Positions 1-55,334 of a stretch of 55,334 nt of DNA are shown here, in pieces. The notes below the pieces were generated by a model that made no database searches, had not been told where the DNA came from, and was given only the letters and a program-made list of their open reading frames with translations. Both the position numbers and the translations under genes were made by a program. The number at the start of each line of letters is the position of its first letter. The stretch's first letter is position 1. This stretch comes from a virus. Lineage: Duplodnaviria > Heunggongvirae > Uroviricota > Caudoviricetes. Location: positions 1-55,334 of IMG/VR virus record IMGVR_UViG_2737471838_000004; one strand, 5' to 3'.

Positions 1-1446
1 ATGAGTATGTCATCCATACCGTCGTCCTCCCAATCCGGGAAGCTCTATGGCTGGGTCGAAAGAATTGGTAACAAGGTTCCCCATCCTTTTTTGCTCTTTA
101 TCTATTTGATAATCGTACTCATGGTGACGACGGCAATTTTGTCAGCCTTTGGCGTCAGTGCGAAAAACCCGACCGATGGTACGCCGGTGGTGGTGAAAAA
201 CCTGCTCAGTGTGGAAGGATTACACTGGTTTTTACCCAATGTGATTAAAAACTTTAGCGGTTTTGCTCCACTTGGAGCGATCCTGGCGCTGGTTTTAGGT
301 GCCGGCCTAGCGGAGCGCGTCGGCTTACTGCCAGCGCTAATGGTTAAAATGGCATCGCATGTTAATGCCCGCTACGCCAGTTATATGGTGCTGTTTATTG
401 CTTTTTTCAGCCACATTTCTTCCGATGCGGCGTTAGTGATCATGCCACCGATGGGTGCGCTGATTTTTCTGGCGGTGGGCAGGCATCCAGTTGCAGGTTT
501 ACTGGCTGCCATTGCAGGCGTAGGTTGCGGCTTTACGGCTAATTTACTGATTGTCACAACCGACGTGTTGCTGTCGGGGATCAGCACGGAAGCGGCGGCT
601 GCGTTCAATCCGCAAATGCACGTCAGTGTAATTGATAACTGGTATTTTATGGCCAGCTCCGTAGTCGTACTGACGATTGTTGGCGGCCTGATAACCGACA
701 AAATCATCGAGCCACGATTAGGTCAATGGCAGGGAAACAGCGATGAGAAACTGCAGACATTGACCGAAAGTCAGCGTTTTGGTTTACGCATAGCAGGTGT
801 CGTATCGCTACTTTTTATTGCTGCGATCGCGCTGATGGTGATCCCGGAAAACGGGATATTGCGCGATCCGATTAATCACACCGTGATGCCATCACCCTTT
901 ATTAAAGGTATCGTGCCACTGATCATTCTTTTTTTCTTTGTTGTCTCGCTGGCTTATGGCATCGCTACCCGCACAATTCGACGTCAGGCGGATTTACCGC
1001 ATTTAATGATTGAACCGATGAAAGAGATGGCGGGATTTATCGTGATGGTTTTTCCCCTCGCCCAATTTGTCGCCATGTTTAACTGGAGCAACATGGGGAA
1101 ATTCATCGCCGTGGGGCTGACCGATATACTTGAAAGTTCAGGGCTTAGCGGCATCCCGGCGTTTGTCGGTCTGGCGTTGCTTTCCTCTTTCTTATGCATG
1201 TTTATTGCCAGCGGTTCCGCAATCTGGTCGATTCTGGCCCCCATTTTCGTACCAATGTTTATGCTACTTGGCTTTCACCCGGCATTTGCGCAAATCCTCT
1301 TTCGTATTGCCGACTCATCCGTATTGCCTTTAGCGCCGGTATCTCCTTTTGTTCCACTGTTTCTTGGATTCCTGCAACGCTACAAACCAGACGCAAAACT
1401 GGGTACTTACTATTCGTTAGTCTTGCCCTATCCGCTTATCTTTTGA
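1..1446 (+). CDS. abgT: AbgT-family p-aminobenzoyl-glutamate transporter (host gene; 481-aa ORF ending at the prophage edge)
   Basis: ORF track 1..1446; N-terminus MSMSSIPSSSQSGKLYGWVERIGNKVPHPF and a multi-TM hydrophobic profile typical of the AbgT/YdaH family; lies outside the phage module. Confidence 0.8.
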   Translation: MSMSSIPSSSQSGKLYGWVERIGNKVPHPFLLFIYLIIVLMVTTAILSAFGVSAKNPTDGTPVVVKNLLSVEGLHWFLPNVIKNFSGFAPLGAILALVLGAGLAERVGLLPALMVKMASHVNARYASYMVLFIAFFSHISSDAALVIMPPMGALIFLAVGRHPVAGLLAAIAGVGCGFTANLLIVTTDVLLSGISTEAAAAFNPQMHVSVIDNWYFMASSVVVLTIVGGLITDKIIEPRLGQWQGNSDEKLQTLTESQRFGLRIAGVVSLLFIAAIALMVIPENGILRDPINHTVMPSPFIKGIVPLIILFFFVVSLAYGIATRTIRRQADLPHLMIEPMKEMAGFIVMVFPLAQFVAMFNWSNMGKFIAVGLTDILESSGLSGIPAFVGLALLSSFLCMFIASGSAIWSILAPIFVPMFMLLGFHPAFAQILFRIADSSVLPLAPVSPFVPLFLGFLQRYKPDAKLGTYYSLVLPYPLIF

Positions 1447-1595: not shown

Positions 1596-4091
1596 TTATT
1601 CTTCGCTTTCGGTCAACTGCCGGACAAGCTCTTCAAGTTTTGTGATCCGTTCATCCATAACGGCAATGTTAGCTCGTAGGCTGGCATTCTCCTCTTCCAG
1701 TTCGGTGACGCGCTTGTCTGTTTCGCGTGCCACCTGGACAAGTAAACCAGTCACCGCAGCGTAGTCAACATTGAGGTAACGCGTTTCCTCGCGTAGCTCG
1801 TTGCCGTCAGTGGTTGGGCCTTGTAACGCTTCACCGTAATGAGTAAACGATCCAACAGCCTCCGGTAGCGCCTCCATAACCTCCTGAGCGATAACGCCAG
1901 CGTAAGGCAGGCCGTTTTCCTTAAGGGTATAGGTGTACCCGTTCATTTTGCGGATTGCTTCAGTTGCATCACCTATAACCTGAATGTTGTCTTTCAGGTC
2001 GCGATCAGATGATTGGTTTACTGCTACGCACGTAACGTTTCCAGACGCTTTAATGTTTGTCACATCAAGTCTGTCGTTTGCGAAACTATATGCAATTGCG
2101 TTACTAACGCTTCCGGCATTATCATAATCGCGCTTCTGAATAAACCAGTTGCCAGCATTAGCAGCGAGAGTATAAGTAGGTGTGTTTGCAGGGCGATCTG
2201 TTTCATCAAATCTTATTGCAGGGGTAACACTATTTATTTGTAAAGGTTTTTCAATCGTTGATTTAAGTATCGCACTGTCAACAAGCAAATTACCTTCTGA
2301 GGTAAGATTTATGTATCTAGTAGTGCTATTTGAACCACCGCATGTAAACCTTATTGTTAGTCGACCTTGCTCATTTGGGTAGGTCTGAACATACATATCA
2401 CCAGCAAGGCGCACAGTGTTATCACTTGCTAACAGTCTAGTATGTAGCATCCCGCTACTAGTGTAGTTGCTAGTAGAATCACTAGTTTTGTCGAGAAACA
2501 TACTATCAAGCTGTGGACTGTTACTTCTACCCAATCCTAGATTAGTCCTGGCATTATCAAGGCTTGTCGTACCAGTGCCGCCTTGCGCTACGCTTAATGG
2601 AACCCATCCAGATCCGTTATGGCAACCCCACAATCCAGATGTTGACACCTGAAGGCGTGGCGCATCTGATAAATATTTCGAATAAACGTAAGTGGTGGAT
2701 TCGCCTTCTTCAACTCTTTCTGTTAATGCTATTTTTTTCCATGCGCTCCAACCTTGCTCGCCATAAGACCTTCTATAAATAATTGCCATATTGTTAAACA
2801 AATAATAGGTCTGTATGCACCCCTCAGAATCTCCTGCGCCAGTTTTTTGCACCAACAATGACCCTGCGATCCGTATAGGGTAATTTAATTCAGGTTTTGC
2901 GTTTGCTGATGATACTTGATGATAAAAGCCTGATGCGCTTCCTTTTAAGTCATCAAGATTCTGGCTATCGCTAAGGGTAGTTTTTGCATCATGCATAACC
3001 ATTAGGTTTTTTCTGGCTTCTGCTGCGTTTCCAGCACCAGTGCCGCCATACATAACGCCTAACTTAATCGCCCCGCCGTTTGAATAAGCACCCCACCCAG
3101 TGTTATTAACGAAGATATAATTTTTCTTTTCTCCGTCCCACAACTGAGTTTCTTTTGCAGTGTTACTAACCTGAAGCAAGCGATCTACTTCATCTTTTCT
3201 TGCGTGTCGTAACCATTGCGGGCCTGTTGATTCACTCCATTTATAAGTGTAAGCACTGCCAGTTATCTTACCTATAAAAAGGCCAGCAAATTCTGGTACG
3301 CCGCCCAAAGTAGGGCAAATAAAGCCAGATAAATAGCGCTCACCTGAAGCAATAGAAGGCCACCCGGTAGCAGCACCTTCCATGATGCGCAGAAAGCCAA
3401 TATAACCTGATGGGTTTCCTGAAATATCTGGGCAATCTCGAGGATTTGTGGAAAGACCTATGTTGGATCCGGTAATGGCCTGAGCCTGGTTGCGATAGTT
3501 TAGCGCATCGGCTGCTGCTTTTGCCGCATTCGTTTCGCTGGTGGCTGCCGCTGTTTTGCTGTTGCTGGATGCTGTTTCGCTGGCTTTTGCTGCATCCTGT
3601 GACGCTTTTGCCGCTGTGGCTGAGTTTGCTGCCGCCGTCTTTGATGCAGCCGCCGCGTTTTTGTCTGATTCTGTTTTTTGAGCGTTGGCGGTTGATTTCG
3701 CCGTTTCTGTGCGAATGTCGGCAAGAAGCTGCTTCATCTGACCATCACCGCCGAACTCATTCCACCATTCAACGGCAGCGGCAATCTCTGTTTCCTTGCC
3801 CTGGTAGTAACGCAGCGTTTCGGCTACGTCCTGAGCAAGCCCATCAACTGAGATCGAGTCAGATAGCAGAATACTAAATTTTGTTCCCGCAGGGATTGCA
3901 GGGTTAGCCGCTGGCGTCACTGACAATTCAGTACCGCTTTTAATTTCTGTAATGGTAAAGATCTGCACCGGATTGCCGATTGCAATAAGCGTGCACCCTA
4001 CACGGATGAGAGAAAGAGGCGCGGAAAAGTTTGTTCCCGTGCCTGTAACTGTGTTGCCATTGATGGCAATTGTTCCAGTTGTGTAAATCAT
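1596..4091 (-). CDS. stf: side tail fibre protein with C-terminal intramolecular-chaperone (peptidase S74-like) domain
   Basis: 831-aa ORF; lambda Stf-like N-terminus, long Ala/Ser/Thr-rich repeat region (AAKAS/TAAA), C-terminal DLKDNIQ...GYTYTLKENG...AQEV block typical of self-cleaving tail-fibre chaperone domains, ending in a coiled coil. Confidence 0.8.
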   Translation of the reverse strand: MIYTTGTIAINGNTVTGTGTNFSAPLSLIRVGCTLIAIGNPVQIFTITEIKSGTELSVTPAANPAIPAGTKFSILLSDSISVDGLAQDVAETLRYYQGKETEIAAAVEWWNEFGGDGQMKQLLADIRTETAKSTANAQKTESDKNAAAASKTAAANSATAAKASQDAAKASETASSNSKTAAATSETNAAKAAADALNYRNQAQAITGSNIGLSTNPRDCPDISGNPSGYIGFLRIMEGAATGWPSIASGERYLSGFICPTLGGVPEFAGLFIGKITGSAYTYKWSESTGPQWLRHARKDEVDRLLQVSNTAKETQLWDGEKKNYIFVNNTGWGAYSNGGAIKLGVMYGGTGAGNAAEARKNLMVMHDAKTTLSDSQNLDDLKGSASGFYHQVSSANAKPELNYPIRIAGSLLVQKTGAGDSEGCIQTYYLFNNMAIIYRRSYGEQGWSAWKKIALTERVEEGESTTYVYSKYLSDAPRLQVSTSGLWGCHNGSGWVPLSVAQGGTGTTSLDNARTNLGLGRSNSPQLDSMFLDKTSDSTSNYTSSGMLHTRLLASDNTVRLAGDMYVQTYPNEQGRLTIRFTCGGSNSTTRYINLTSEGNLLVDSAILKSTIEKPLQINSVTPAIRFDETDRPANTPTYTLAANAGNWFIQKRDYDNAGSVSNAIAYSFANDRLDVTNIKASGNVTCVAVNQSSDRDLKDNIQVIGDATEAIRKMNGYTYTLKENGLPYAGVIAQEVMEALPEAVGSFTHYGEALQGPTTDGNELREETRYLNVDYAAVTGLLVQVARETDKRVTELEEENASLRANIAVMDERITKLEELVRQLTESEE

Positions 4092-4520: not shown

Positions 4521-4550
4521 AAACCCCGCGCGAAGCGGGGTTATTTTTTA
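4521..4550. terminator. bidirectional rho-independent terminator (ends lipoprotein gene on + and J on -)
   Basis: stem CCCCGC/GCGGGG with GCGAA loop, T-tract TTATTTTTT on +, A-run upstream giving T-tract on -; J stop codon lies in the T-tract. Confidence 0.6.
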
Positions 4551-7500
4551 TGACCAAGAACCAGAACTCCTTGTAACAAGCGCAAGTCCAGCCCTTCTTT
4601 CTGTACCTGTACTGGTGTTGGTGTATTCTTCTGTTATTGTTATGGTTACTTTTTGCGCCGTGATCCCTGTGACGCAATGTGATACCGTAAATCCAAATTG
4701 AGGCGTAGATGCCGCCCTCACGACTGAATATGTTTTACTATTTCCATTAATGTTTATTGTCACTTTTATGGTTGTTGACTGAGAATACTGATAGTAAGTC
4801 AGGTGATAAGGAATCATCACAAAAACGGTTTTAGAAAGCGAACTCGAAGACGAATCTGTATAAGTTTTAGTAACAGAACGCGATGCACTGTCCGACTGGT
4901 TAGGGAATGATGCTTGAGGTATAAAGTTAGTTGACGCGACATCGCCTACAAAACTTGTAGCCTCTAGCGACCCTTTAAATTTACCGCTATTTGCATACAC
5001 CGCCCCCCTTACCGTTACGTTGTTAAGCTCCGCGCTACCGTTTTTATTAATCATCCAGCCAGCCGAACCGGCTTTATAGTTGGTTGACTGTATTTGCTGT
5101 GCAATTTTAGCTGTAGTGATTGCTGCATCTGCAATTTTAGCCGTTCCTATTGATGCGTTTTTAATAAACGCTTCGCGCACATACATTGCACCATTTGTAA
5201 CATAGAAAGGTGTCGTATATGTGCCGTTTGCCGCCGTCATTAGCACAAAACGGTCAACAAGGAAAATGCATTGTGATTGTGTGCTACTTCCCGATCCGGT
5301 CATACCTAACGAAATCCCGGACGCATACTTCATGCCGTTATTGTCAGTAGCGATCTTAATGCTCCACGTTGCCGACATATCTGTTTCAATACCGGCAATT
5401 GCGGTTTTGTTTTCCTCGATTGATACCGATTGCCCGTCGATTGAGGCCGTGATACTTTCGATCTGCGTGGCGGTTGATTCCTTGTAAGATGTAAACGCTT
5501 CGCCCCACTCCGTGATCGATGCTTCGTTTGCTTCCAGTGATGCGCTAATCTCCGCAAACTGTGTAGCGTTGGCCTTTTCGTGGGTAGCAAGTGCCGTTTG
5601 CATTTCGGTAATGGCTGCCGACACATCATCATCGATTTGGGCTTGCAATTGCTCCAGTTTCTGCGCGGTCGCCTCCTTCTCTGTAGCAATAACTGAATCA
5701 ATGCGCTCAATTTCTGCTTTCGTTTCCGCTTTCTGGCTCTTATATTGCGCCGTTAACGATGTGCGGGTTCTGGCGTTAGCTAATGAGTTATTCATAAGCG
5801 CAATGGCTGCGTTTTGCAGGCTGGCGCGGGTCTGCATTAGCTCGTTTTCCTGCTCCGTCAATTCTACGCTGATTTCGTTAATCTGGCTTTCGTGCTCCCC
5901 AATTCCGTCCTCATTGTTTTTTATACGTTCTTCCAGATCGGCGGTTGATTCCTTCAGGTCGGTAATAGTCTGGTTCATTTCTTCCACGTCACCCATTAAA
6001 CCTCCTGTTACTTCGTCCATGGAGTCCTTGATCATGTTCTGGAATTGTTCGCTTTCCATAACTTCATTCAGCACGGCATCCGTGATTTCTTCGAAGTTTT
6101 CGGAAGGTTTACCGCTGGCTTCGATAAAGTCAGATACACCGAAAGCGTTTTTTGTGCGCACGTAAACGTAATACGTGTGCCCCGTTGCCATCCCGCCGAA
6201 GGTCCATTGATACCCGCGCCCGGTGAATTGCGCTGATGTGGTTACTTTGGATGGATCTGTGATCTGATTTTCCCCTGAGTAGTAGAACTCGTATGCTGTA
6301 TCAGTGGTTAGGGTTGTTTTGCTGATCGGGTACACCGTTGCCTGAAAAACACCAGGCACCCAATTAACGCCGACGGGGGCCGCTGGCGCACCAATAACCA
6401 GATCCACAATACTTTCTGCGCCCTTCATGCCAGTGTCATTACGACCGCGAATACCAAGCGTGTAGCTGCCTGCGTCGAGGCCATAAAATTCATAGCGGTA
6501 ATTCGTGGTTTCATAACTTGCCACCACGCGACCGTCTGCATTATATACGCGGATTTCAAAGGTAAGACGATGCGTTGTTGTCTGTGTTTCCCATGTTGCG
6601 CGGCATTGAACCGTTTCAGAACCAGCGTTTAACACTTTCAGATTTTCAATGTTAGGTACGCGGAAGTGATTAAGCGTGTCGTTGTTGATTTCGAAGACTG
6701 CGCCTTCATCAACTACGGCCTGTTTGTTAGGGTCGTGCTGTGCGGCTTCGATAGTGTATACGCTGTTATTTTCTGTTTCCGCTACGCTGGTGATCCTACA
6801 TAAAACGGGTTTTGCTGCTTCAGTCGATACAGCAAAAACAGTGCCATTGCGAATCCATGCCGGGGCCGCAGCAAGGGTAATATTGTTTCCGTTAATTCCG
6901 GTGATCTGGTGTTTTTTAAATTTACCATCGTTATCAAGTAATCTGATGGTGTCACCAGCCGCGATATATTCAGAATCAACCTTATCGACCGTTATCACTT
7001 TGCCATTGTTCGCCACGATACGACCGCCCAAACGAGCACCAGCGCGGTTATTGTCGAGGATCTCGATAATATCCCCAGGGGTGAAGTGAATGGCGTCACG
7101 GGCCATTTTAAACGTAAATTTCGACGGCTCGCGTTTTGCTGTTTCGATCAGCCATTTACCAGCGCGGTAAGCCTGTCCGCGAGAAGTACAGCCGAACGCC
7201 TCCAGCGTGGTTTCGTTGTAGCCGTCGCGGGCGATCAGTTCATCGTCAGAGACATACTCTTTTGACTGTTCCCAACCGTTACCCGGATCAGTCCAGGATA
7301 CAATCACGGCGTTGTAGCACTCAGCGCGGGCAAGGCTCGAACGGGTGAATACACCATCTACGACATTTGCGTTCGTGATAGTTGCAATCGGATCTTGTGG
7401 CGCATCAATCATCACTGTAAGACGTTGCCCATCCCATAACGCAATACCACGGAACATGCCAGCTATATTATCAAGTAAGTCGCGGGCGCTCATTTGCTCT

Positions 7501-8504
7501 GTGATGTAAGCGTTAAGCGTCATGCGAGGCTCTTTCCCACCGTAGCCATCATCAACCAACTGATCGCAATATTGTGAAAGCGTGTATAAAGCGCCATCGT
7601 CAACATCAATATAACCAGCCTGTCGAGCAAGGCCGAAACGGTCGTTTTTGATCAGGTAGCGGAACAACCACGCGGGGTTATTGGTGTACGCCTTTTTAAA
7701 GCCACCCAGCCATAAACCGGAATAAGTGCGCTTTTCCGGGTCGTAGTTATCAGGAATATCAACAATCAGTCCGCGAAGGTGATAGGTGCGGGTGGGCGTG
7801 TCAGTGTACTGATCATGATCAATCACCACTCCAGCTACAGCGGTGTGAGGATAAGACAAATTATCGTCGATGATTTCGCTGTAACTGCTCCACCGTGTAT
7901 CATTGCTAAGTAGATCGCTGTTGCTGTCTGCCGTTACTCGGCGAACGCGAATATCAAACGGCTTTTCATCCGGCGCGTTGATAATGTGAGCTTCCAAGTA
8001 TTCACCGCTCTGTTTACCAGGCCCGATGGTAATATCCTTAACCAGCGTCCACGTAGATGATGATGATGGCTTAACATCAACCATTAACATAACTGACGTG
8101 TTGTATTGATTGCCCATATCATCTGACTGAACGAGAGCGTCAACGCCAACATTTAATCTGACGCGGGTCACGTTCGGATCTGATACCGTCCTGACCAGTG
8201 GGGTGTCATGCGTTACTTTTGCGTTGACAATAACGGTTGATTCAATGGCGTTGAAGCCGTTGATTGGTGATTGATCAGCCGTACCATTACGCCATGCCAC
8301 GCTAACACCAGGGACTGATGTGTTTCCGCTTGCGTCAGTGATGGGAGTGTCATTAAGCATCACGCTGTTTAATGGAGCGGTTTGATTGACGCAGCCAAAA
8401 ATTGGACCTTCACTTAGAATATCCAGAACCCGATAAAATTGTTTGTGATACAAATTATCATTAATCAAGGTAGGTGTTTTCGCCTTACCGCCACCACTAG
8501 ACAT
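4548..8504 (-). CDS. J: host specificity / central tail fibre protein J
   Basis: ORF 4548..8543; start moved to the internal ATG (MSSGGGKAKTP) preceded by GGAGG; lambda gpJ-like N-terminal and central regions plus a long coiled-coil segment and divergent C-terminal domain. Confidence 0.85.
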   Translation of the reverse strand: MSSGGGKAKTPTLINDNLYHKQFYRVLDILSEGPIFGCVNQTAPLNSVMLNDTPITDASGNTSVPGVSVAWRNGTADQSPINGFNAIESTVIVNAKVTHDTPLVRTVSDPNVTRVRLNVGVDALVQSDDMGNQYNTSVMLMVDVKPSSSSTWTLVKDITIGPGKQSGEYLEAHIINAPDEKPFDIRVRRVTADSNSDLLSNDTRWSSYSEIIDDNLSYPHTAVAGVVIDHDQYTDTPTRTYHLRGLIVDIPDNYDPEKRTYSGLWLGGFKKAYTNNPAWLFRYLIKNDRFGLARQAGYIDVDDGALYTLSQYCDQLVDDGYGGKEPRMTLNAYITEQMSARDLLDNIAGMFRGIALWDGQRLTVMIDAPQDPIATITNANVVDGVFTRSSLARAECYNAVIVSWTDPGNGWEQSKEYVSDDELIARDGYNETTLEAFGCTSRGQAYRAGKWLIETAKREPSKFTFKMARDAIHFTPGDIIEILDNNRAGARLGGRIVANNGKVITVDKVDSEYIAAGDTIRLLDNDGKFKKHQITGINGNNITLAAAPAWIRNGTVFAVSTEAAKPVLCRITSVAETENNSVYTIEAAQHDPNKQAVVDEGAVFEINNDTLNHFRVPNIENLKVLNAGSETVQCRATWETQTTTHRLTFEIRVYNADGRVVASYETTNYRYEFYGLDAGSYTLGIRGRNDTGMKGAESIVDLVIGAPAAPVGVNWVPGVFQATVYPISKTTLTTDTAYEFYYSGENQITDPSKVTTSAQFTGRGYQWTFGGMATGHTYYVYVRTKNAFGVSDFIEASGKPSENFEEITDAVLNEVMESEQFQNMIKDSMDEVTGGLMGDVEEMNQTITDLKESTADLEERIKNNEDGIGEHESQINEISVELTEQENELMQTRASLQNAAIALMNNSLANARTRTSLTAQYKSQKAETKAEIERIDSVIATEKEATAQKLEQLQAQIDDDVSAAITEMQTALATHEKANATQFAEISASLEANEASITEWGEAFTSYKESTATQIESITASIDGQSVSIEENKTAIAGIETDMSATWSIKIATDNNGMKYASGISLGMTGSGSSTQSQCIFLVDRFVLMTAANGTYTTPFYVTNGAMYVREAFIKNASIGTAKIADAAITTAKIAQQIQSTNYKAGSAGWMINKNGSAELNNVTVRGAVYANSGKFKGSLEATSFVGDVASTNFIPQASFPNQSDSASRSVTKTYTDSSSSSLSKTVFVMIPYHLTYYQYSQSTTIKVTININGNSKTYSVVRAASTPQFGFTVSHCVTGITAQKVTITITEEYTNTSTGTERRAGLALVTRSSGSWS

Positions 8505-9063
8505 ATAGACCTCCAGTTTCGTGTAATTTCGTGTAACCGGCACCAGCTTTGTTTAGCTCTTCAATCATAAACGACCGCCACGCAACGGCGGCGTTAATCG
8601 CCATCTCGAGACCGCCCCACGACATAACGCTAAATGATTTGCTAATTCTTTTAGCGTTATCAGTGGTAATGCGTGCTCTAATAGATCTACCTTCTGCGTG
8701 CCAACACACTCCAAAAGGCAAGCCGTTAAACCTTATTGAACGACCTACAGTCATGTTTCTGGCGTTGCCTTTTTTATCTGTTACGCGTATGTTGTTGAAT
8801 TTATTGTTAAGCCCATTACCATCAATGTGATCTATGATTTCACCGCGTTTTAATTTTCTGCCGCTGCATAATTCGAAAACAATCCGGTGTGCATAATAGC
8901 GGCGGCCCTTCCATGTAATTTTCCAATACTTATTGCCGCTTTTTGCTGCTACTATTTTCCCCGCTGCGTCGCCCGCCCGTGCCGTTCTGCTGTTAGCGGT
9001 GACCTTCCACCTTAAACATGAAGGCGAATCCTCATCATAAACAAACAATTCAGACCAGTTCAC
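8497..9063 (-). CDS. HNH homing-endonuclease-like protein (HNH + AP2-like domain) inserted between tail genes I and J
   Basis: 188 aa; YAHRIVFE...GEIIDHIDGNGLNN...NIR motif pattern of HNH_3/AP2 endonucleases; paralogous to three other ORFs in the window. Confidence 0.7.
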   Translation of the reverse strand: MNWSELFVYDEDSPSCLRWKVTANSRTARAGDAAGKIVAAKSGNKYWKITWKGRRYYAHRIVFELCSGRKLKRGEIIDHIDGNGLNNKFNNIRVTDKKGNARNMTVGRSIRFNGLPFGVCWHAEGRSIRARITTDNAKRISKSFSVMSWGGLEMAINAAVAWRSFMIEELNKAGAGYTKLHETGGLYV

Positions 9064-9076
9064 TTTAACCCTCCTG

Positions 9077-9607
9077 TTAACTTACAACGTCTAGGGCGTC
9101 TTTATTATTGGTTGTGTCAATACCCAAGGAACCAACATTCGAACCTATTTTCATTTCACCCAACAGGATCGGCACTGGTCTACCCTGGCCAACCTTGTTT
9201 TCAACGCTGGTGTATGTGTTGTTAGATATGGTGTTATCTTGTGCGCTTTCTGCTGATGTTTTTATCTTCATATTGCGTGACATGAAGATCGAGAACGCAA
9301 CGCTGACAACCGAAACACCGATCAAAATCCAGCCTACAACGCCAATCCCTGCAATACCGCCTTCCACCACTGGCGCAACAATGACGGTAGTTCCGTCCGG
9401 GTATTTACTGTTAACCGCTGCGGGCGCGGTCTTTTCGTTATAATCTTTTCCGGCAATCCTCAGGCGCAATGGGGTACTTAAAAACGCCTTTTTGAACTCA
9501 TGATTCTGCGCAACCAGTAAGTTAAGCCCTTGCGCTGGCGTATCAACGCTTAAACACACCTTGCCGTAATATCTTCGAAGATTGCCCGTAAATCTAAATT
9601 TGAGCAT
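9077..9607 (-). CDS. I: tail assembly protein I
   Basis: 176 aa; position after K; hydrophobic central segment and C-terminal LLGEMKIGSNV similar to lambda gpI (LYGEMRVGSRV). Confidence 0.7.
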   Translation of the reverse strand: MLKFRFTGNLRRYYGKVCLSVDTPAQGLNLLVAQNHEFKKAFLSTPLRLRIAGKDYNEKTAPAAVNSKYPDGTTVIVAPVVEGGIAGIGVVGWILIGVSVVSVAFSIFMSRNMKIKTSAESAQDNTISNNTYTSVENKVGQGRPVPILLGEMKIGSNVGSLGIDTTNNKDALDVVS

Positions 9608-10281
9608 TTGTCAGATCTCCATATTGAGTTGGTCTGTCGAACATACGCAGGCCGCATTTGCTCGCGGCGGCTTAATAGTCCGGCATTGTCATGATGCAAA
9701 ACAGTATTGTCTCCCAGGTAAATCATCGCGTGACATGGGTCAGCGCCTTTAAACGGCTGGCGGATAATCACATCACCTGGCTGAATGCTTTGCGCGTCAA
9801 CCTGATAAAACCCGTTTAGCGGCAAGTTTTTTAAATACAGGTTTTCCCCACGCAGCCACCACCCATCGTTGCGCTCAAAGTCCGGTAGATCCACGCCACA
9901 AAGGTGATAGGCGTCACGGAAAAGCGAGTAACAATCTGTTTTCCCGTGCTCAAATTTACGGCCCAACAGGTGAGCCACCGGGCGGAATTTTCTAACCATG
10001 CCACCGGAACACAAATACCACGGCAGGCCGGAAATAACCTGCTGTTGTCGATCCCGTGCTGACAATATCAACGAATTGTCAGTATGGGAGTGAAAAACGG
10101 CGGTTATAACGCCTAATTCGTCAGCTTTGATATAATCGTCAGGCGATATTTTAAAGCTGTTGTGCGGCGTTTCAGACACGTTTAAGCACGGGTAAAAATA
10201 ATCGTTATCTATCACCAACCCGCACACTTCCTCGCGCTGGTGGGCTGCCGCATAGCGAATCATTTTATCTTCAAGTGCCAT
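9550..10281 (-). CDS. K: tail assembly protein K (MPN/JAMM + NlpC/P60 domains)
   Basis: ORF 9550..10377 trimmed to the ATG abutting the L stop; JAMM motif HSHTD and NlpC/P60-like Cys (DCYSLF); conserved position between L and I. Confidence 0.75.
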   Translation of the reverse strand: MALEDKMIRYAAAHQREEVCGLVIDNDYFYPCLNVSETPHNSFKISPDDYIKADELGVITAVFHSHTDNSLILSARDRQQQVISGLPWYLCSGGMVRKFRPVAHLLGRKFEHGKTDCYSLFRDAYHLCGVDLPDFERNDGWWLRGENLYLKNLPLNGFYQVDAQSIQPGDVIIRQPFKGADPCHAMIYLGDNTVLHHDNAGLLSRREQMRPAYVRQTNSIWRSDKCSNLDLRAIFEDITARCV

Positions 10282-10283
10282 AA

Positions 10284-10988
10284 TTAACCGACCTTGCTTG
10301 ATCCGGGGAAACATGAAATTGGTAACGGATTGGGGCGCGGGAAACGCAAACGGCAACCGCTCAGGCGGTGGCTGCATTTATCCAGTTTTGGATCGCTGGT
10401 CGATTCGTCTTTATCTGTAGCTACAGGGCCGCCACTGTATCCGCAACCGTCGCCCCGGTATTGCCACTGGCAAACGTCAGCGAGGATTGTGCGCCCAGGG
10501 ATAACTGCCTTGTCGGCATCAATTGGCGTTGAAAGTTCATATTGCACCTGGTCGGCTGTTTCTTCGCTCATCGCCTCAACGACGTAAAAAGATACAGCCT
10601 CGATAGATGGATCTGCATCTGGATTGCCATTGGGGAAGTTGACAGCGTCCAGATATTTTACTTCCACCTGGCGGCGCGTAACCTTCATTCCTCGCAGGTC
10701 GTTGAAATCGTTGTTCATCCCGGTGATTAGCCCGCCAATGTTGGCTACTACCATTTGCGGGCGCGAGTAAACGCCTTCGTTTTTCATTTCGAAGCCAGTA
10801 GCCTCGATTGGGTAGCTGTTGTAAGCCAAGCCCTTCCAGATAACCGGGCCGTAATAGCCATTCGTGCCGGAATGGAAGCGGATAACCTCGCCACCCAGGG
10901 GCGTGAGGTCTAATTCAAACAAGTCAATTACCGCTCCGACCCCTGCATCGACGGAATCAATAATCATTTCTGTAGGTATGCTGCGCAT
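10284..10988 (-). CDS. L: minor tail protein L
   Basis: 234 aa; clear similarity to lambda gpL (FLDAVNF.NGN, RGD.CGYSG, DKCS..LSGC). Confidence 0.85.
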   Translation of the reverse strand: MRSIPTEMIIDSVDAGVGAVIDLFELDLTPLGGEVIRFHSGTNGYYGPVIWKGLAYNSYPIEATGFEMKNEGVYSRPQMVVANIGGLITGMNNDFNDLRGMKVTRRQVEVKYLDAVNFPNGNPDADPSIEAVSFYVVEAMSEETADQVQYELSTPIDADKAVIPGRTILADVCQWQYRGDGCGYSGGPVATDKDESTSDPKLDKCSHRLSGCRLRFPRPNPLPISCFPGSSKVG

Positions 10989-11041
10989 TTTATCACCTTG
11001 TCATTTTGTGATCGCCATCACGCTAAATCATACCAAAACGG

Positions 11042-11070
11042 TTGATAGCGCTTTTTACAATATGTATATT
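11042..11070 (+). promoter_or_regulatory. sigma70-like promoter of moron cassette B (TTGATA-17-TATATT), -10 overlapped by inverted repeat ACAATAT-gt-ATATTGT
   Basis: near-consensus -35/-10 with 17-bp spacer in the L/M intergenic region, upstream of plus-strand ORFs. Confidence 0.4.
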
Positions 11071-11116
11071 GTACTCAAAAGGAAGCATGGTTAACAAAAT
11101 GGCGCGGAGGTGTTAT

Positions 11117-11272
11117 ATGGCTGACAAGGTGTGGAGGTTGACGGTGTTCCTGGCTGATGGCAGGGAAATGACTGTAGCTCTGTATAAAGACGAAGGCGAG
11201 GCACTGACTGACGCGCTTTTACTTGCTGAAGATGACCGCGTTTTGGGGTACAGGATAGAACCTGTCAAATGA
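11117..11272 (+). CDS. hypothetical small protein (moron cassette B)
   Basis: ORF 11042..11272 trimmed to the ATG preceded by GGAGG (MADKVWRLTV...); alternative start at 11087. Confidence 0.4.
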   Translation: MADKVWRLTVFLADGREMTVALYKDEGEALTDALLLAEDDRVLGYRIEPVK

Positions 11273-11284
11273 GAGGTTAACAAA

Positions 11285-11638
11285 ATGCAAAAGTATCGTC
11301 TTGATGTCTGGATGGCTGGTAGTGATGATTGGGAAGGTTACGGCTTGCATGACAGTTACGAAATGGCGGTCGAGGAAGGAGAAAAACTCGTTCGATTCTT
11401 CGGTCGCGCAAGAGAATTCAAAATTACTCCAGTACAAATACCGGATAAGGTGGAAGATATGAACCCGAAAGATATTAACTTTAACGTCAATGTTGAATTT
11501 GCTGATTCTATGGATCAATCTTGCCCTGGCGAAATACACGCAAAAGGTTTCCCGGCTGACGATCCTGAAGCAAAACGTGAATACGAAAAAGCGGCAAAAG
11601 ATTTCTGTATCGACAATTTGTCTGCGTTCAATAAATAG
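11285..11638 (+). CDS. hypothetical protein (moron cassette B)
   Basis: 117-aa ORF, acidic, tightly spaced after previous ORF. Confidence 0.5.
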   Translation: MQKYRLDVWMAGSDDWEGYGLHDSYEMAVEEGEKLVRFFGRAREFKITPVQIPDKVEDMNPKDINFNVNVEFADSMDQSCPGEIHAKGFPADDPEAKREYEKAAKDFCIDNLSAFNK

Positions 11639-11647
11639 GGTGGGAGT

Positions 11648-11896
11648 ATGGCGCGGCGTAATCACGGGGATTATGTGTACACGTTGAAACAGGCCGCCCG
11701 CCTTATCGGTTATCATGAACACGAATTTATTGATTTGCTGATTGAGCGCGGGATACTGTACCAGGTCTGTTTAACACTGTACCCGAAAGCGAAATACCTA
11801 CAGGAAAAGTTATTCATCATCATGACGGATGAAAACCAGGTCAACCATTCATTCGTTACTGATAAGGGCGTTAATTATCTGCGTGATAACTTATAG
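11648..11896 (+). CDS. hypothetical protein, possible HTH (moron cassette B)
   Basis: 82-aa ORF; GGGAG RBS; segment YTLKQAARLIGYHEHEFIDLL resembles a helix-turn-helix. Confidence 0.45.
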   Translation: MARRNHGDYVYTLKQAARLIGYHEHEFIDLLIERGILYQVCLTLYPKAKYLQEKLFIIMTDENQVNHSFVTDKGVNYLRDNL

Positions 11897-12052
11897 GTGA
11901 CAGATTATGAAAAATAGAAGTTTTGGCGCTAATAATAATGGGACTGATAGTATTTGGCGTTCATGCTGCCGATTGGGACTGGGCGGCGATAGCCAATAAT
12001 ATGGCGCACGCACACCCAATGAGTTTGCTGTATATTAACTACTAAAAGAAAA

Positions 12053-12276: not shown

Positions 12277-12630
12277 TTAGCCAACAACTTGCTCAAATGT
12301 TGCGTTTAGCGTGTATACAGGCCCGTCCTTTGTCATACTCCAGCTACGGCAAACAAAAAGCCTTTGCACGCCATCCATAGACGGCGACCAGTAAAAAGCC
12401 TCGACAGCGCCGCGCGCCCTCAAGAATGCTTCTGCCTGGATCGCCACGTTCCCACTATCACCGCATCCTGCGCTACTGCCTTTAAAAACCAGGGTGTAGC
12501 TATCAAGCAACGTGTTAATCCCTTTCGCCTGGCGCTGTTCATAACCATCACCAAGTTTAACGACCGACACATTTGGTTCCCTGGTCACGCTGTAGCTTCT
12601 TTGCGGCGTCCATCTGAAAACTTCCGGCAT
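12277..12630 (-). CDS. M: minor tail protein M
   Basis: 117 aa; lambda gpM-like motifs (FRW.P, GDGYEQR, FEQVV); GGGGGAA RBS. Confidence 0.8.
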   Translation of the reverse strand: MPEVFRWTPQRSYSVTREPNVSVVKLGDGYEQRQAKGINTLLDSYTLVFKGSSAGCGDSGNVAIQAEAFLRARGAVEAFYWSPSMDGVQRLFVCRSWSMTKDGPVYTLNATFEQVVG

Positions 12631-35401: not shown

Positions 35402-35804
35402 TGTCACCCCACATATTAGTCGCGTATTCGTCAATATCCGGTAGTAGGTCGCCGCGTTCGCGGATCTTAATAAACAATCGCCCGCCTTTTACCTTCCGGC
35501 AGCGAACAATTTTTATAGAATCGATTTGTCCGTCATCAGTCCAGAATCCGGCGTATGTAAGGCTATCAAAAAGGCATTTAGGGATATTATCCAGATCTCT
35601 GGTTCGGTTATCCGGCGGCGCGGCATGAATGGTAATTGCCAGTCGGCAAGATAGGTTAATATTTAAATTTAATAGCTCGATGATGTTTCTTACCTGTTCC
35701 CGGTATTCTTTCCCCACTTTACTGATATAATGAAAACCTCGTGAATGCCGGTAATACCTATTATTCGATGGCGGGTAAGGCAGGCTAAAAGAATATTCAT
35801 TCAT
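35385..35804 (-). CDS. rusA: Holliday junction resolvase RusA
   Basis: 139 aa; motifs PPSNNRYY, RDLDN, GFW.DD typical of RusA. Confidence 0.85.
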   Translation of the reverse strand: MNEYSFSLPYPPSNNRYYRHSRGFHYISKVGKEYREQVRNIIELLNLNINLSCRLAITIHAAPPDNRTRDLDNIPKCLFDSLTYAGFWTDDGQIDSIKIVRCRKVKGGRLFIKIRERGDLLPDIDEYATNMWGDNEKRN

Positions 35805-36289
35805 GGAGGATTTCTCATTTCATATTTGTGAAAACCGTATTTTATTTCAGCGTCACGTCTAGCGCGTATTGCGTCTTCTATATCTTTAAACCTCCCTAAA
35901 TAGATTGTTTTGCCGTTTACATGTATAAAAGCGTCATAAGCGTTTTTATGGAAGTAGACCCCGGTTATTCCTAGTTTATTATTTTTCTGCACGTTCCTAT
36001 TTTGTTGGTTTTGCTGTGGAGTAACAAGAAACAGGTTTTCTATATTATTATTTAGTCGGTTTCTATCAAAATGATCTATTTGATACCCTTCCGGGATCGG
36101 GCCGTTGTGCATCTCCCAAATAATATGATGTGCCAAATACATGTTTTGTTTGTATTTTATTAATCTGTAAGACGTTGTGCTACTCACACAACCAGCAAGA
36201 TCACCGACACAAATTTTTCCGTGTTTTGGTTTTATTTTCCAGTAAAGATCGCCATTTCTATATTCAAATATATCACCCCAATTATGCAC
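35801..36289 (-). CDS. HNH homing-endonuclease-like protein (HNH + AP2-like)
   Basis: 162 aa; IWEMHNGPIPEGYQIDHFDRNRLNN...NLFLVT; paralog of 49570..50073 and 52979..53437. Confidence 0.75.
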   Translation of the reverse strand: MHNWGDIFEYRNGDLYWKIKPKHGKICVGDLAGCVSSTTSYRLIKYKQNMYLAHHIIWEMHNGPIPEGYQIDHFDRNRLNNNIENLFLVTPQQNQQNRNVQKNNKLGITGVYFHKNAYDAFIHVNGKTIYLGRFKDIEDAIRARRDAEIKYGFHKYEMRNPP

Positions 36290-48449: not shown

Positions 48450-49580
48450 ATGTCGCAAAGAAAAATCAGCGATGAACAATTGATCGCTGAATACAACAAC
48501 GGTTTAACGTACAAACAGATCGCTGAAAAGTACGGCATGTCTAAACGCAATGTCGAACGCCTGGGCGCAAAACTGGCAAAACGCGGTTTAATATCAACAC
48601 GCCGCGCGCCTGGTTTTAGCGTTACTGGCGAGTCAGTGCTTGTTGACAATAACGGGAATACAGTCATGCGCTGGATTAAAACAGCCCGTGACCGCGACGA
48701 AATGGAAATGCTAATGGAAGCTGCACGCGACGCTTTCACGGATGAAATACCACGCGCGGAGGCCGTGCCAGTTCCGGAAATTGATTTTCAAAAAAGCCTG
48801 GCTCTTTATCCGGTATTTGATCTGCATATCGGGGCGCTTGCTCATAAAGCTGAATGCGGCGAGAGCTACGACACTGGGATCGCTGAGCGCGTGTTGAATG
48901 ACTTCTTTGACTACGCCGTTGGCGCTGCGCCGATGTCTGAAAAAGCTGTATTGCTTCTCGGTGGCGATCTGCTTCACTCTGACGGTATGGTCCCGGTGAC
49001 GCCAACAAGCGGGCACATTCTTGATCAAGATAGTCGCTACGCAAAACTTGTTTATGTGGCGATCCGGTCTGTCCGTCGTGCGGTAGGGAAGATGTTGCTA
49101 AATCATAAGGATGTGGAAATCCAGGTGTTATCAGGGAATCATGACCAGTCTGGTATGATTTGGCTACGTGCGGCGCTGGCGGCTTTTTACGAAGATGAAC
49201 CGCGCGTGACGGTTGATGTGTCCCCTGCCATCGTCCACCACACACAGTACGGAAAAACGTTCCTTGCTTACCACCACGGGCACACTATCAAAAAGCCTGA
49301 AAATTTATTGTCTGCTTGCGTCTCTGACTGGCGGGAAGACTTTGGCAAGTCAAAATATGTTTACGTACATGTGGGCCATTTGCACCATAAATCAGTGACA
49401 GAATCATCTATAGGCATAGTTGAACATCATGGCACGTTAGCGGGAAAAGACGCTTATTCAACTAATGGAGGATGGAGATCGCAACGTTGCGCTGCGGTTA
49501 TCATTTACAGTCCTGACTATGGCGAAATTGGTCGCTTTGTATATAGGCCTGAAATGGTGGAGTGTCATAATGTGGGATGA
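48450..49580 (+). CDS. HTH-domain protein fused to calcineurin-like metallophosphoesterase domain
   Basis: ORF 48426..49580 trimmed to MSQRKISDE (GGAGG RBS); N-terminal HTH (LTYKQIAEKYGMSKRNVERL); phosphoesterase motifs DLHIG, GGDLLHSD, GNHD, GHLHH. Confidence 0.55.
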   Translation: MSQRKISDEQLIAEYNNGLTYKQIAEKYGMSKRNVERLGAKLAKRGLISTRRAPGFSVTGESVLVDNNGNTVMRWIKTARDRDEMEMLMEAARDAFTDEIPRAEAVPVPEIDFQKSLALYPVFDLHIGALAHKAECGESYDTGIAERVLNDFFDYAVGAAPMSEKAVLLLGGDLLHSDGMVPVTPTSGHILDQDSRYAKLVYVAIRSVRRAVGKMLLNHKDVEIQVLSGNHDQSGMIWLRAALAAFYEDEPRVTVDVSPAIVHHTQYGKTFLAYHHGHTIKKPENLLSACVSDWREDFGKSKYVYVHVGHLHHKSVTESSIGIVEHHGTLAGKDAYSTNGGWRSQRCAAVIIYSPDYGEIGRFVYRPEMVECHNVG

Positions 49581-50073
49581 TTTATTTACCTATAGTGACG
49601 GCGTTCTATATTGGTCTTGTAATCGTGCAAACAACAAAATAAAAGCAGGTAGCGTGGCTGGATGTAAACATTATCGCGGATATTGGACTGTACGCGTTAA
49701 TGGTATTTGTTGCACATGGCGTCACCGCATTATCTGGGAAATGTTTAACGGCCCTATTCCTGATGGAATGGAAATAGATCACATAAATCATGTACCTGGT
49801 GATGATAGAATCGAAAACTTAAGGATGGTGACAAGGAAGGAGAATAACAGAAACAAAACAATGCCATCAAGTAACACTAGCGGATGCGTTGGCGTTACGT
49901 GGAACAAGAAAACCAATAAATGGCGTGCGCAAATAGGTATAAGGGGGTCTGATGGGAAAAAGAAAACAATATACGTTTATTACGGTGACTCATTTGATGA
50001 TGCCGTAAAAGCAAGAAAAGAAGCTGAAAGAATGTATAACTTTCATAGCAATCACGGCATTTCTTTACCATGA
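49570..50073 (+). CDS. HNH homing-endonuclease-like protein (HNH + AP2-like)
   Basis: ORF 49465..50073 trimmed to MWDDLFTYSDGVLYW; IIWEMFNGPIPDGMEIDHINH...NLRMVT. Confidence 0.75.
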   Translation: MWDDLFTYSDGVLYWSCNRANNKIKAGSVAGCKHYRGYWTVRVNGICCTWRHRIIWEMFNGPIPDGMEIDHINHVPGDDRIENLRMVTRKENNRNKTMPSSNTSGCVGVTWNKKTNKWRAQIGIRGSDGKKKTIYVYYGDSFDDAVKARKEAERMYNFHSNHGISLP

Positions 50074-52570: not shown

Positions 52571-52986
52571 GGCAAATTAGATTTGAGATAGTAAACGACG
52601 CCGTGAAAGAAAATGCTGTCAGGCAGATAAGAGAGATCCAGCCTGATAGCAAAAGCCCGCTGATAATTACCATCCAGGAGAAAACCCGCTCGCTAAGTCA
52701 AAATGCGAGACTGCACGCCATGCTATCTGATATAGCAAGGCAAGCTGAGTATTTAGGCAAAAAAAGAACCATTGATTTTTGGAAGGGTTTATTTGTTTCT
52801 GGATGGATGATTGCTACTGGGTATAAAGCTGAAATAATTCCAGGGCTTGAAGGTGAGTTTATCAATATAAGGGTAAGCACTACAACTTTAAGCAAACGAG
52901 ATTTAAACGAATTAATGGAATATATCGAAGCATGGTGCGTCGCCAATGGTGTAAGATTATCAACGTGGAGAGTATATAATGGTTGA
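52567..52986 (+). CDS. ninB: NinB (Orf) recombination mediator
   Basis: 139 aa; NinB-family signature (ITIQEKTRSLSQNARLHAMLSDIARQ). Confidence 0.8.
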   Translation: MRQIRFEIVNDAVKENAVRQIREIQPDSKSPLIITIQEKTRSLSQNARLHAMLSDIARQAEYLGKKRTIDFWKGLFVSGWMIATGYKAEIIPGLEGEFINIRVSTTTLSKRDLNELMEYIEAWCVANGVRLSTWRVYNG

Positions 52987-53437
52987 TTGGCATTATTACT
53001 TTGAATATAGGGAAGGATTTTTGTATTGGAAGGTGAATCCTTCATGCAAAATAAAGGCTGGAGCATTGGCTGGAAGTTTCAGCCATCGCGGATACATGAA
53101 GGTAAGCATAAATAAAAGGCGTTATTATGTTCATCGGATTGTTTGGGAAATGCACAACGGCCCAATCCCTGTTGGGTATGAGGTGGATCATATAGATAGG
53201 AATCCATCCAATAATTTAATTCAGAATTTACGCCTTGTTACTCATAGGGTTAATATGAGGAACCAACCTCCTAAGACTAATAGCGGATGCATGGGTGTAT
53301 CATGGTATAAAGCATATAATAAATGGCAGGTTAGAATTAAAGTTGATGGTGTTACTTTATTTATAGGGTATTTTGAAAAATTAAGTGACGCAATAAATGC
53401 GAGAAAGGAAGCTGAATCTAAGTATTGGGGGCAATAA
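52979..53437 (+). CDS. HNH homing-endonuclease-like protein (HNH + AP2-like)
   Basis: 152 aa; YVHRIVWEMHNGPIPVGYEVDHIDRNPSNN...NLRLVT. Confidence 0.75.
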   Translation: MVDWHYYFEYREGFLYWKVNPSCKIKAGALAGSFSHRGYMKVSINKRRYYVHRIVWEMHNGPIPVGYEVDHIDRNPSNNLIQNLRLVTHRVNMRNQPPKTNSGCMGVSWYKAYNKWQVRIKVDGVTLFIGYFEKLSDAINARKEAESKYWGQ

Positions 53438-54265: not shown

Positions 54266-54483
54266 TGGATAAGATCGGCACAATACTTATTAATCGCGAG
54301 CAAGTGCAAAAAATGTTAGGCGGGCTTAGTAAGTCCGCCTTTTTTAAGCTCGTTAAAAAATGGAAAGATGCGGGAACTCCTTTCCCTGAACCTGTTAAGG
54401 GGATGCCAGCATTAAAGCGCGGCGGATCTCTTTACCGTTATCAGGATGTTATTTCATTTTGTAAATCAATGGGCTTCATGTAG
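54265..54483 (+). CDS. putative excisionase / AlpA-like HTH regulator
   Basis: 72 aa; small HTH protein convergent with and overlapping the integrase 3' end. Confidence 0.45.
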   Translation: MDKIGTILINREQVQKMLGGLSKSAFFKLVKKWKDAGTPFPEPVKGMPALKRGGSLYRYQDVISFCKSMGFM

Positions 54484-55334
54484 TAATCAGCCAGTTTATT
54501 CATCGCCTCTATTTGCTCCTTCACGTAATCATACTGATCATATATAGCCATCATTCCCGCCAGTTTATGACCTAAAACCTTTTCTGCTACGTGCGGCGCA
54601 ATGCCAAGCGCTGAAAGGTTTGTCCTTACAGTGCGGCGCAAGTCGTGACACGACCACGGCTCGCCGCCCATCCTTAGCATCAAATCCCTTGCGGCTGTTT
54701 TCGGCACGCTCCTGTCTACCGCTTCATCCCTTCCAGAAAGCACGGGAACGAAGATAAAATTAAAGCCGTGCAAATCCATAGCTTCACGCAATAAATCAAC
54801 GCTAACGTCGGATAAACCGCGCTTAAACTCATTTCTGTTCTTACTCAATGCACCCGGCACGGTCCACACGCAGTTATCAAGATCGAAATGTTCGCGCCTT
54901 GCGTTTGTTAGTTCGCTTGTTCTGCATCCGGTGAATATAATCAGCTTCATCAATATCTGATTTAGCCGCGCCATTTTTGAACTGTCTATAATGCTGATTA
55001 GATGGTGAATCTCTTGTATTGATAAGACGCGTTTCCTTTGCGCCGGGTTTTTGCCTACGTCTTTCACGCGTAGCAATGATATGTCGTCACGCTCCACGCG
55101 GCGGCGGCGCATGGCATATTTTATAACCGCCTTCATCCTGTTTAAGACTATCCCGGCCTGAACGGGCGCGCCACCATTAGCTACCTTTCTAAAAATTCCC
55201 TCCCACATCATAGCGTCCATATCATCGACTATATAGCCACCGTATGGTTTTATGACGTGCTTATCTAGCATGGCCTCAACCTGCTTATAATTGACCATGT
55301 TCCTTGCCTGCGGCGATTCCATGTACTCACTCAC
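54441..55334 (-). CDS. int: tyrosine integrase (C-terminal 297 aa; N-terminus beyond window end)
   Basis: catalytic region HDLRRT...LGHK...Y at C-terminus; ORF runs off the right edge. Confidence 0.85.
   Translation of the reverse strand: MSEYMESPQARNMVNYKQVEAMLDKHVIKPYGGYIVDDMDAMMWEGIFRKVANGGAPVQAGIVLNRMKAVIKYAMRRRRVERDDISLLRVKDVGKNPAQRKRVLSIQEIHHLISIIDSSKMARLNQILMKLIIFTGCRTSELTNARREHFDLDNCVWTVPGALSKNRNEFKRGLSDVSVDLLREAMDLHGFNFIFVPVLSGRDEAVDRSVPKTAARDLMLRMGGEPWSCHDLRRTVRTNLSALGIAPHVAEKVLGHKLAGMMAIYDQYDYVKEQIEAMNKLADYYMKPIDLQNEITS

Follow-up and report, generated by a model that had tools for sequence, protein, structure and literature searches.

A probable homing endonuclease gene of the HNH-AP2 type between tail genes I and J of an mEpimmI-like prophage

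The window analysed here is the whole of IMG/VR virus record IMGVR_UViG_2737471838_000004, a stretch of 55,334 nucleotides (nt) from a virus of the class Caudoviricetes that is integrated as a prophage of E. coli. Between the tail assembly gene I and the host-specificity gene J of this prophage lies an open reading frame (ORF) of 188 amino acids (aa), which is probably a free-standing, site-specific homing endonuclease gene, and one that appears to have colonised the I-J junction of lambda-type tail modules. The protein joins an HNH catalytic core to an AP2-like DNA-binding domain, the gene is present in some close relatives and missing from others at one precise site, and a short piece of J co-segregates with it. 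From these comparisons we infer cleavage activity, a target site and homing itself. Among sequenced phages, mEp021 and other members of the mEpimmI group come nearest to the window, with about 90% identity over 7500..11000.

In both the ORF list and the raw sequence, the gene occupies 8497..9063 of the minus strand and runs from a GTG start codon at 9061..9063 to a TAG stop codon at 8497..8499. I and J are both full-length, and the endonuclease gene stands between them with its own start and stop, with no intron or intein. The stop codon of I (TAA, 9077..9079) is separated from the GTG by 13 nt, while the endonuclease stop and the ATG of J share 8 nt (ATGTCTAG). The list of ORFs starts J at a GTG at 8543; the start common to all the relatives is the ATG at 8502..8504 (MSSGGGKAK…), and J in the window is 3957 nt long. 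The original prediction, which described a 188-aa ORF between I and J on their strand and overlapping the J start by 8 nt, was therefore correct in its coordinates, the strand being minus.

The translation signals of the gene are interlocked with those of its neighbours. As depicted by the junction alignment, the AGGAG used by the endonuclease is the Shine-Dalgarno sequence of J in relatives that do not have the gene, and the last codons of the endonuclease (…ETGGLYV and stop) supply J with a new GGAGG and an overlapping ATG. This C-terminal extension is confined to the mEpimmI-type subclade, in which the gene overlaps J. In a promoter scan of 8200..9700 the coding strand had no sigma-70-like site, and fewer sites were counted in total than expected from shuffled sequence. 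We therefore assign the gene to the late tail operon and, on the same scan, reject an autonomous transcription unit for the window copy. The features of the locus are as follows, with the evidence for each in brackets; dN and dS stand for nonsynonymous and synonymous divergence, and mEp021_78 is the mEp021 orthologue.

8497..9063, minus strand: HNH-AP2 endonuclease gene, free-standing (ORF, Pfam, PHROG, PADLOC, identity to mEp021_78, dN/dS)
8758..8898, minus strand: HNH_3 catalytic core, aa 56-102, motif AHR...IDHIDGNGLNN...NIR...GNARN (Pfam, alignment of 22 homologues, I-HmuI profile match and Foldseek)
8578..8754, minus strand: AP2-like DNA-binding domain, aa ~104-162 (family profile, structure model, PF00847 matches of homologues)
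9070..9075, minus strand: Shine-Dalgarno sequence AGGAGG, 6 nt 5' of the endonuclease GTG (sequence and junction alignment)
8510..8514, minus strand: replacement Shine-Dalgarno sequence GGAGG for J, within the last codons of the endonuclease (sequence)
8305..8504, minus strand: start of J linked to the endonuclease gene, resembling a co-conversion tract (carrier and non-carrier site counts, dS)
8482..8494, minus strand: position of the non-carrier 13-mer GCGGCGGCAAAGC, here GTGGCGGTAAGGC; candidate part of the recognition site (comparison)
9077..9607, minus strand: tail assembly protein I, 176 aa, upstream flank (PHROG_32, E=1e-28; annotation of relatives, 'tail assembly protein I')
4548..8504, minus strand: central tail fibre or host-specificity protein J, 1318 aa, downstream flank (PHROG_31, 1099 bits; annotations of relatives)

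Domains, fold and constraint

The HNH assignment is well above chance. Pfam model HNH_3 (PF13392) matches residues 56-102 over its full length (1-46) with an E-value of 1e-10 and a score of 41.5 bits, compared with a cutoff of 24.8 bits, and the family PHROG_99, 'HNH endonuclease', is matched at E=7.5e-34; domain searches thus uphold the HNH type that had been predicted. In PADLOC the protein has a weak match only, to a 'homing endonuclease' model (E=1.4e-6), and a search of NCBIfam with the endonuclease protein gave no match; nothing thus points to a known defence system. Six catalytic and metal-binding residues (H59, D78, H79, N91, N100 and N103) are invariant in an alignment of 22 homologues that includes the window protein, and they align with the motif DHKDGNKDNN...NLR...N of I-HmuI. 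A family profile built from this 22-sequence alignment and run against the PDB sequences matches I-HmuI (1U3E) at residues 49-107 (E=8.3e-10) and Toxoplasma AP2 domains at residues 104-162 (E=5.5e-5), with E-values for solved AP2 domains ranging from 5.5e-5 to 3.5e-3. Many of the homologues also bear precomputed matches to PF00847 (AP2), often marked 'faint'.

The AlphaFold (AF2) model of the endonuclease has a mean predicted local distance difference test score (pLDDT) of 89.3. Its nuclease core is modelled as strands 76-79 and 92-95 followed by a helix at 97-101, the arrangement of the beta-beta-alpha-metal fold, and the C-terminal part is predicted to form three strands (119-122, 127-133 and 139-145) followed by a long helix (152-172), as in an AP2 domain. 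Together with the profile match and the PF00847 matches among homologues, the modelled strands and helix support the AP2 type, which had likewise been proposed at the outset. The best PDB match found by Foldseek is I-HmuI, with a probability of 1.00. Between the window and mEp021, the dN/dS of the gene is 0.068 at a dS of 0.59, which indicates strong purifying selection. Judged by its sequence, the HNH-AP2 endonuclease gene is genuine, intact and kept by selection, and its product has predicted nuclease activity.

Occupied and empty junctions

Among the close relatives, mEp021 and mEp515 carry the gene, both at 91.5% amino acid identity to the window copy (identical scores). Seven others do not: mEp010, mEp554, mEp044, mEp013, MagusPhagus, and E. 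coli prophages in strains N1286 and WCHEC025970. In all seven, the stop codon of I is followed by 13-15 nt and then by the ATG of J, so the gene is an insertion, as had been supposed, and not a conserved tail component. The tally for the mEpimmI lineage is thus 3 carriers to 7 non-carriers, with one precise site whose borders are defined to the nucleotide by alignment with the insert-free relatives, which is how the original prediction had proposed to find them. At this site 12 nt in non-carriers are replaced by 570 nt, and the flanks common to both classes are ...GTTAACAGGAG on one side and TAG(C/T)GG... on the other. In coding orientation, the non-carrier junction reads …GTAAGTTAACAGGAG-AAAAGCCATGAG-TAGCGGCGGCGGC… and that of the window reads …GTAAGTTAACAGGAG-[ GGTTAAAGTG…CTATATGTC ]-TAGTGGTGGCGGT…. 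Presence and absence at so precise a site support the predicted likeness to a free-standing homing endonuclease gene. A set of 5426 complete E. coli genomes yielded 17 matches to the flanks and 0 to the gene; the source genome of the window lies outside this set, and the counts are not an estimate of prevalence.

The age of the gene relative to its flanks was assessed by comparing the window with mEp021. For this pair dS is 0.30 in I, 0.59 in the endonuclease gene and 0.8-0.9 in J. The gene therefore lies between its two neighbours, and the comparison gives no sign that it is younger than they are or was recently transferred.

More distant members of the family occupy the same junction. A search of 5.8 billion proteins returned 27 homologues, and genomic context was read for ten of them. 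All seven of those with 49-84% identity sit between I and J: P0002 (84%, from gut metagenomes), P0003 (74%, E. coli), P0004 (61%), P0005 (56%, Atlantibacter), P0006 (53%, Pseudocitrobacter), P0007 (56%, Salmonella) and P0008 (49%, Cronobacter). The three at 43% identity or below occur in unrelated contexts away from the I-J junction, on phage contigs near ribonucleotide reductase genes (P0011, 43%; P0012, 41%; P0014, 36%). The flanks of the Salmonella locus are 86-94% identical to those of phages ES18, 29485 and Oslo, none of which has the gene. The ES18-like junction copies, which are 49-56% identical to that of the window, have different borders, with hairpins and spacers of their own, and those of Salmonella type form cassettes of their own, in which one hairpin precedes the gene and another, resembling a terminator, stands before J. 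One junction has thus been occupied independently, with different borders, in two lineages that both have relatives with an empty site, and this is the strongest argument for site-specific mobility.

The ES18-like copies, from hosts in Salmonella, Cronobacter and Pseudocitrobacter, share a perfect 5' hairpin, CCGGAGAGATG…CATCTCTCCGG, and have a GC hairpin with a T-run just before J (in locus L011 at ~4903..5000 and 5556..5599, and likewise in L017 and L022). The terminator-like element, lying inside a late tail operon, may regulate expression of the endonuclease in these phages.

The P0002 gene (L014, 3001..3564) is mosaic relative to the window copy at 8497..9063. Nucleotides 1-300 and 481-567 are 92-98% identical, compared with only 52-63% for nucleotides 301-480, which encode the linker and the AP2-like DNA-binding segment. 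This looks like the swap of a DNA-binding module between related endonucleases. It is possible, and we put it forward tentatively at somewhat less than even chances, that a distinct HNH-AP2 clade has specialised for a single target in lambda-type tail modules, either the conserved I-J junction or the opening codons of J, has spread over at least two temperate siphophage lineages, the mEpimmI-type and the ES18-type, in several genera of the Enterobacteriaceae, retargets by exchanging its AP2 segment (as between the window copy and P0002), and drags a short piece of J along with it.

The start of J and rival explanations

To locate sequence linked to the gene, 6 genomes of carriers and 7 of non-carriers were compared for class-exclusive sites, at which the two classes have no allele in common. 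None of the 429 variable sites in the 1400 nt upstream (L, K and I) is class-exclusive, as against 6 of 86 in J nt 1-200 and 1 of 437 in J nt 201-1400. The enrichment in the first 200 nt of J is significant (Fisher's exact p=3e-6). Divergence follows the same course: between mEp021 and mEp010, dS rises from 0.11 in I to 1.75 in J nt 1-150 and falls to 0.38-0.45 deeper in J. The gene thus appears to travel with a short, more foreign piece of the 5' end of J, on one side only. A one-sided tract is the pattern expected of asymmetric co-conversion, with which these data are consistent, without amounting to proof.

Within this tract, GCGGCGGCAAAGC occupies J nt 11-23 (codons 4-8) in all seven mEpimmI-type non-carriers and in two of the four of ES18 type. 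It is absent from all 14 carrier loci, each of which has at least one synonymous change. The window has GTGGCGGTAAGGC, which differs from it by three synonymous third-position changes (GGC>GGT, GGC>GGT and AAA>AAG, at J nt 12, 18 and 21), and carriers have either T or G at J nt 18, two distinct derived alleles. We propose GCGGCGGCAAAGC, by inference and as a hypothesis only, as a candidate part of the recognition site.

A homing cycle at this locus would run as follows. Having no promoter of its own, the gene would be transcribed along with the late tail operon, and translation of the endonuclease would begin from the ribosome-binding site that non-carriers use for J. The 3' end of the endonuclease gene would give J a new ribosome-binding site and an overlapping start, and expression of the tail gene would thereby be preserved. 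When a carrier phage or an induced prophage met a related non-carrier genome in one cell, the enzyme would nick or cut the non-carrier DNA in or close to the I-J junction or the opening codons of J. With the carrier genome as template, repair would then copy the gene together with about 150-200 bp of the 5' sequence of J. Carrier genomes would be protected, since the insert splits their site and synonymous changes alter the opening codons of their J.

Several results weigh against homing as the explanation. The dS of the gene, comparable to that of its flanks, fits a long vertical residence in the lines leading to the window and mEp021. The 14 carrier loci amount to about 6 distinct sequences, and with so few independent carrier lineages the class-exclusive sites could come partly from shared ancestry of the recombinant block. 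GCGGCGGCAAAGC is missing from the non-carrier ES18-type phages Oslo and SPN3UB, for which a 13-mer or 14-mer target rule fails, and mEp013 has the 13-mer only. At the protein level, Pfam AP2 (PF00847) gives no match to the window protein alone at E<=0.1. The whole-chain template modelling (TM) score of the Foldseek match to I-HmuI is low, at 0.32, because the domain arrangement differs from that of I-HmuI; it is therefore chiefly the profile match and the motif that place the protein in this fold.

The original prediction went beyond homing to suggest that the endonuclease drives exchange of the receptor-binding module, such that the gene and host-range alleles at the C-terminal end of J would travel together. 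This has some appeal, since it is established as a general concept that phage homing endonuclease genes are found at exchange boundaries (Barth et al. 2023, PMC10448857), and the gene abuts J, whose length and C-terminus vary strongly in the group. The linked sequence, however, is limited to about the first 200 nt of a gene of 3957 nt. Among the matches listed, the C-terminal 419 aa of the window J are closest to a non-carrier, MagusPhagus (75.7%), the next partial match is to another non-carrier, mEp013, and no carrier appears. J lengths and C-termini are equally diverse among the non-carrier phages. The two cultured carriers make the same point: mEp021 and mEp515 (L001 and L004) have the same identity to the window in every bin, through K, I, the endonuclease gene and the first ~2.5 kb of J, and hence equivalent gene copies and the same 5' end of J, yet their annotated J genes measure 5184 and 4182 nt. 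This difference of 1 kb despite equal bins implies a recombination breakpoint deep in J, unrelated to the endonuclease gene. We find nothing that ties the gene to the receptor-binding end of J, and consider the proposed link improbable on the sequences compared.

Of the remaining explanations, the one we would regard as merely unlikely is that of a passenger gene, inserted once between I and J in an ancestor, inherited vertically, and kept for some benefit to the phage or simply tolerated, with its presence and absence produced by ordinary recombination of tail modules or by deletion. Between the window and mEp021, the gene and its flanks have diverged to a similar degree (dS 0.59 vs 0.30-0.9), the mEpimmI genomes are highly mosaic in sliding-window identity, and the re-used Shine-Dalgarno sequence and the overlap with J integrate the gene tightly into translation of the operon, all of which would suit a passenger. 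Such a history has difficulty accounting for the 49-56% identical homologues that occupy this junction, with borders of a different kind, in ES18-like prophages while near relatives of those prophages do not have the gene, a distribution hard to explain without site-specific insertion; moreover, the linked tract is short and one-sided, and purifying selection and intact catalytic residues show that nuclease function has been maintained. The nuclease might instead serve as a weapon between phages, disabling co-infecting or resident related genomes that do not have the gene, to the profit of the whole phage genome. SegG and MobE of T4 act in this way against T2, in what is called marker exclusion. 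Expression from the late operon would coincide with the replication of competing genomes, and the weak PADLOC match is to the 'homing endonuclease' model only. The molecular features called on are those of homing, however, so the sequence signature is the same, and no partner or immunity gene is present. Marker exclusion is in any case a consequence of homing and not a true alternative to it, and as a separate explanation we give it very little credence. Hardly any weight attaches to a role in DNA packaging, in which an HNH protein of the HK97 gp74 type assists terminase. Many cos-type siphophages need an HNH protein for packaging, and this general need is what speaks for it. Such genes adjoin those for terminase and portal, whereas here about 15-18 kb separate the gene from the large ORFs of the putative head and packaging region, at ~23.3-26.8 kb; close relatives such as mEp010, mEp044, mEp554 and mEp013 do not have the gene, yet are viable and form plaques; and the protein has an AP2-like, sequence-specific DNA-binding domain of a kind typical of homing enzymes. 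On position and dispensability in sister phages, we reject both a packaging HNH protein and a virion component.

Prophage setting and comparison with known systems

At its left end the window contains abgT (1..1446, plus strand), 99% identical to E. coli abgT, and at its right end a tyrosine integrase gene (54441..55334, minus strand) that is cut off by the end of the window. Upstream of I, in 5' direction, come K (NlpC/P60 and JAB domains) and then L (Phage_tail_L, E=5e-72). abgT is among the integration sites reported for mEpimmI prophages, and the ends of the window match the class of these prophages defined by abgT and a type II integrase (PMC11893012). The same description of the mEpimmI group makes no mention of an HNH or homing gene.

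Three further HNH_3 genes occur in the prophage, at 35801..36289 (minus strand), 49465..50073 (plus strand) and 52979..53437 (plus strand), each with a Pfam E-value of ~1e-22 and 30-34% identical to the I-J copy. They lie, respectively, next to NinG, between a replication-initiator-like ORF and DnaB, and 3' of NinB; the second of them matches both Pfam HNH_3 and AP2 directly. Megablast coverage suggests that the NinG-adjacent gene is missing from all seven sequenced relatives and that the other two are variably present. Elsewhere in the tail operon, a cluster of small genes on the opposite strand (~11040..11900, with plus-strand ORFs at 11042..11272, 11285..11638 and 11648..11896) lies between L and a Phage_min_tail gene (12277..12630). 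One of its genes is annotated as a putative antirepressor in mEp021, and identity to the relatives drops to 71-79% at 11220..11515, compared with 90% or more in the flanks. A second tail-fibre gene (1596..4091, minus strand, 831 aa) is found 3' of J next to abgT; it has a C-terminal Peptidase_S74 intramolecular chaperone domain, and its length varies among the relatives.

The scientific weight of these observations is modest, as free-standing HNH homing genes are common in phages and GenBank already labels the mEp021 orthologue an HNH endonuclease. What is added here is a natural experiment in plaque-forming coliphages with and without the gene, with borders defined to the nucleotide, a short linked tract in J, a candidate target motif that can be tested, and a second lineage in which the same junction has been colonised. 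Homing, and its effect on the mosaicism of tail genes in temperate phages, thereby become testable by simple crosses. If the proposed junction-specific clade is real, the cultured carriers (mEp021 and mEp515) and non-carriers (mEp010, mEp044, mEp554, mEp013 and ES18) would form a ready genetic system for homing in temperate phages. A further outcome is a correction: that the gene accounts for the swapping of receptor modules is an attractive idea, but one without support here.

The nearest known counterparts of the window gene are mEp021_78 (AXN54197.1, 'putative HNH endonuclease') and the unnamed mEp515_105, orthologues of 188 aa with 91.5% amino acid identity to it, which share its position between I and J, its GTG start and its 8-nt overlap with J. 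mEp021_78 differs from the window gene by about 12% in nucleotide sequence (dS 0.59), and mEp021 integrates at ydaM, the window prophage at abgT. I-HmuI (1U3E), the homing and nicking enzyme of Bacillus phage SPO1, belongs to the same HNH_3 family with a His-Asn-Asn motif and likewise has a beta-rich N-terminal region before the core. It is, however, encoded in a group I intron and ends in a helix-turn-helix domain, whereas the window protein is free-standing and ends in an AP2-like domain. Magnani and colleagues are said to have described, in 2004, AP2 domains fused to HNH in homing enzymes of phages and cyanobacteria; the HNH-AP2 endonucleases have the same HNH_3 and AP2 architecture as the window protein, although the AP2 region of the window copy is too diverged to be found by Pfam AP2 alone. 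MobE, SegF and SegG of T4 resemble the window gene in lying in intergenic sites between essential genes, in being present or absent among relatives, in the co-conversion or exclusion of flanking markers, and in occurring several to a genome. The same likenesses hold for the HNH genes of ICP1 (Barth et al. 2023, PMC10448857). The homing genes of both ICP1 and T4 belong to virulent phages, whereas the window gene is part of a late tail operon in a temperate, lambda-like siphophage or prophage and is translationally interlocked with the genes on both sides.

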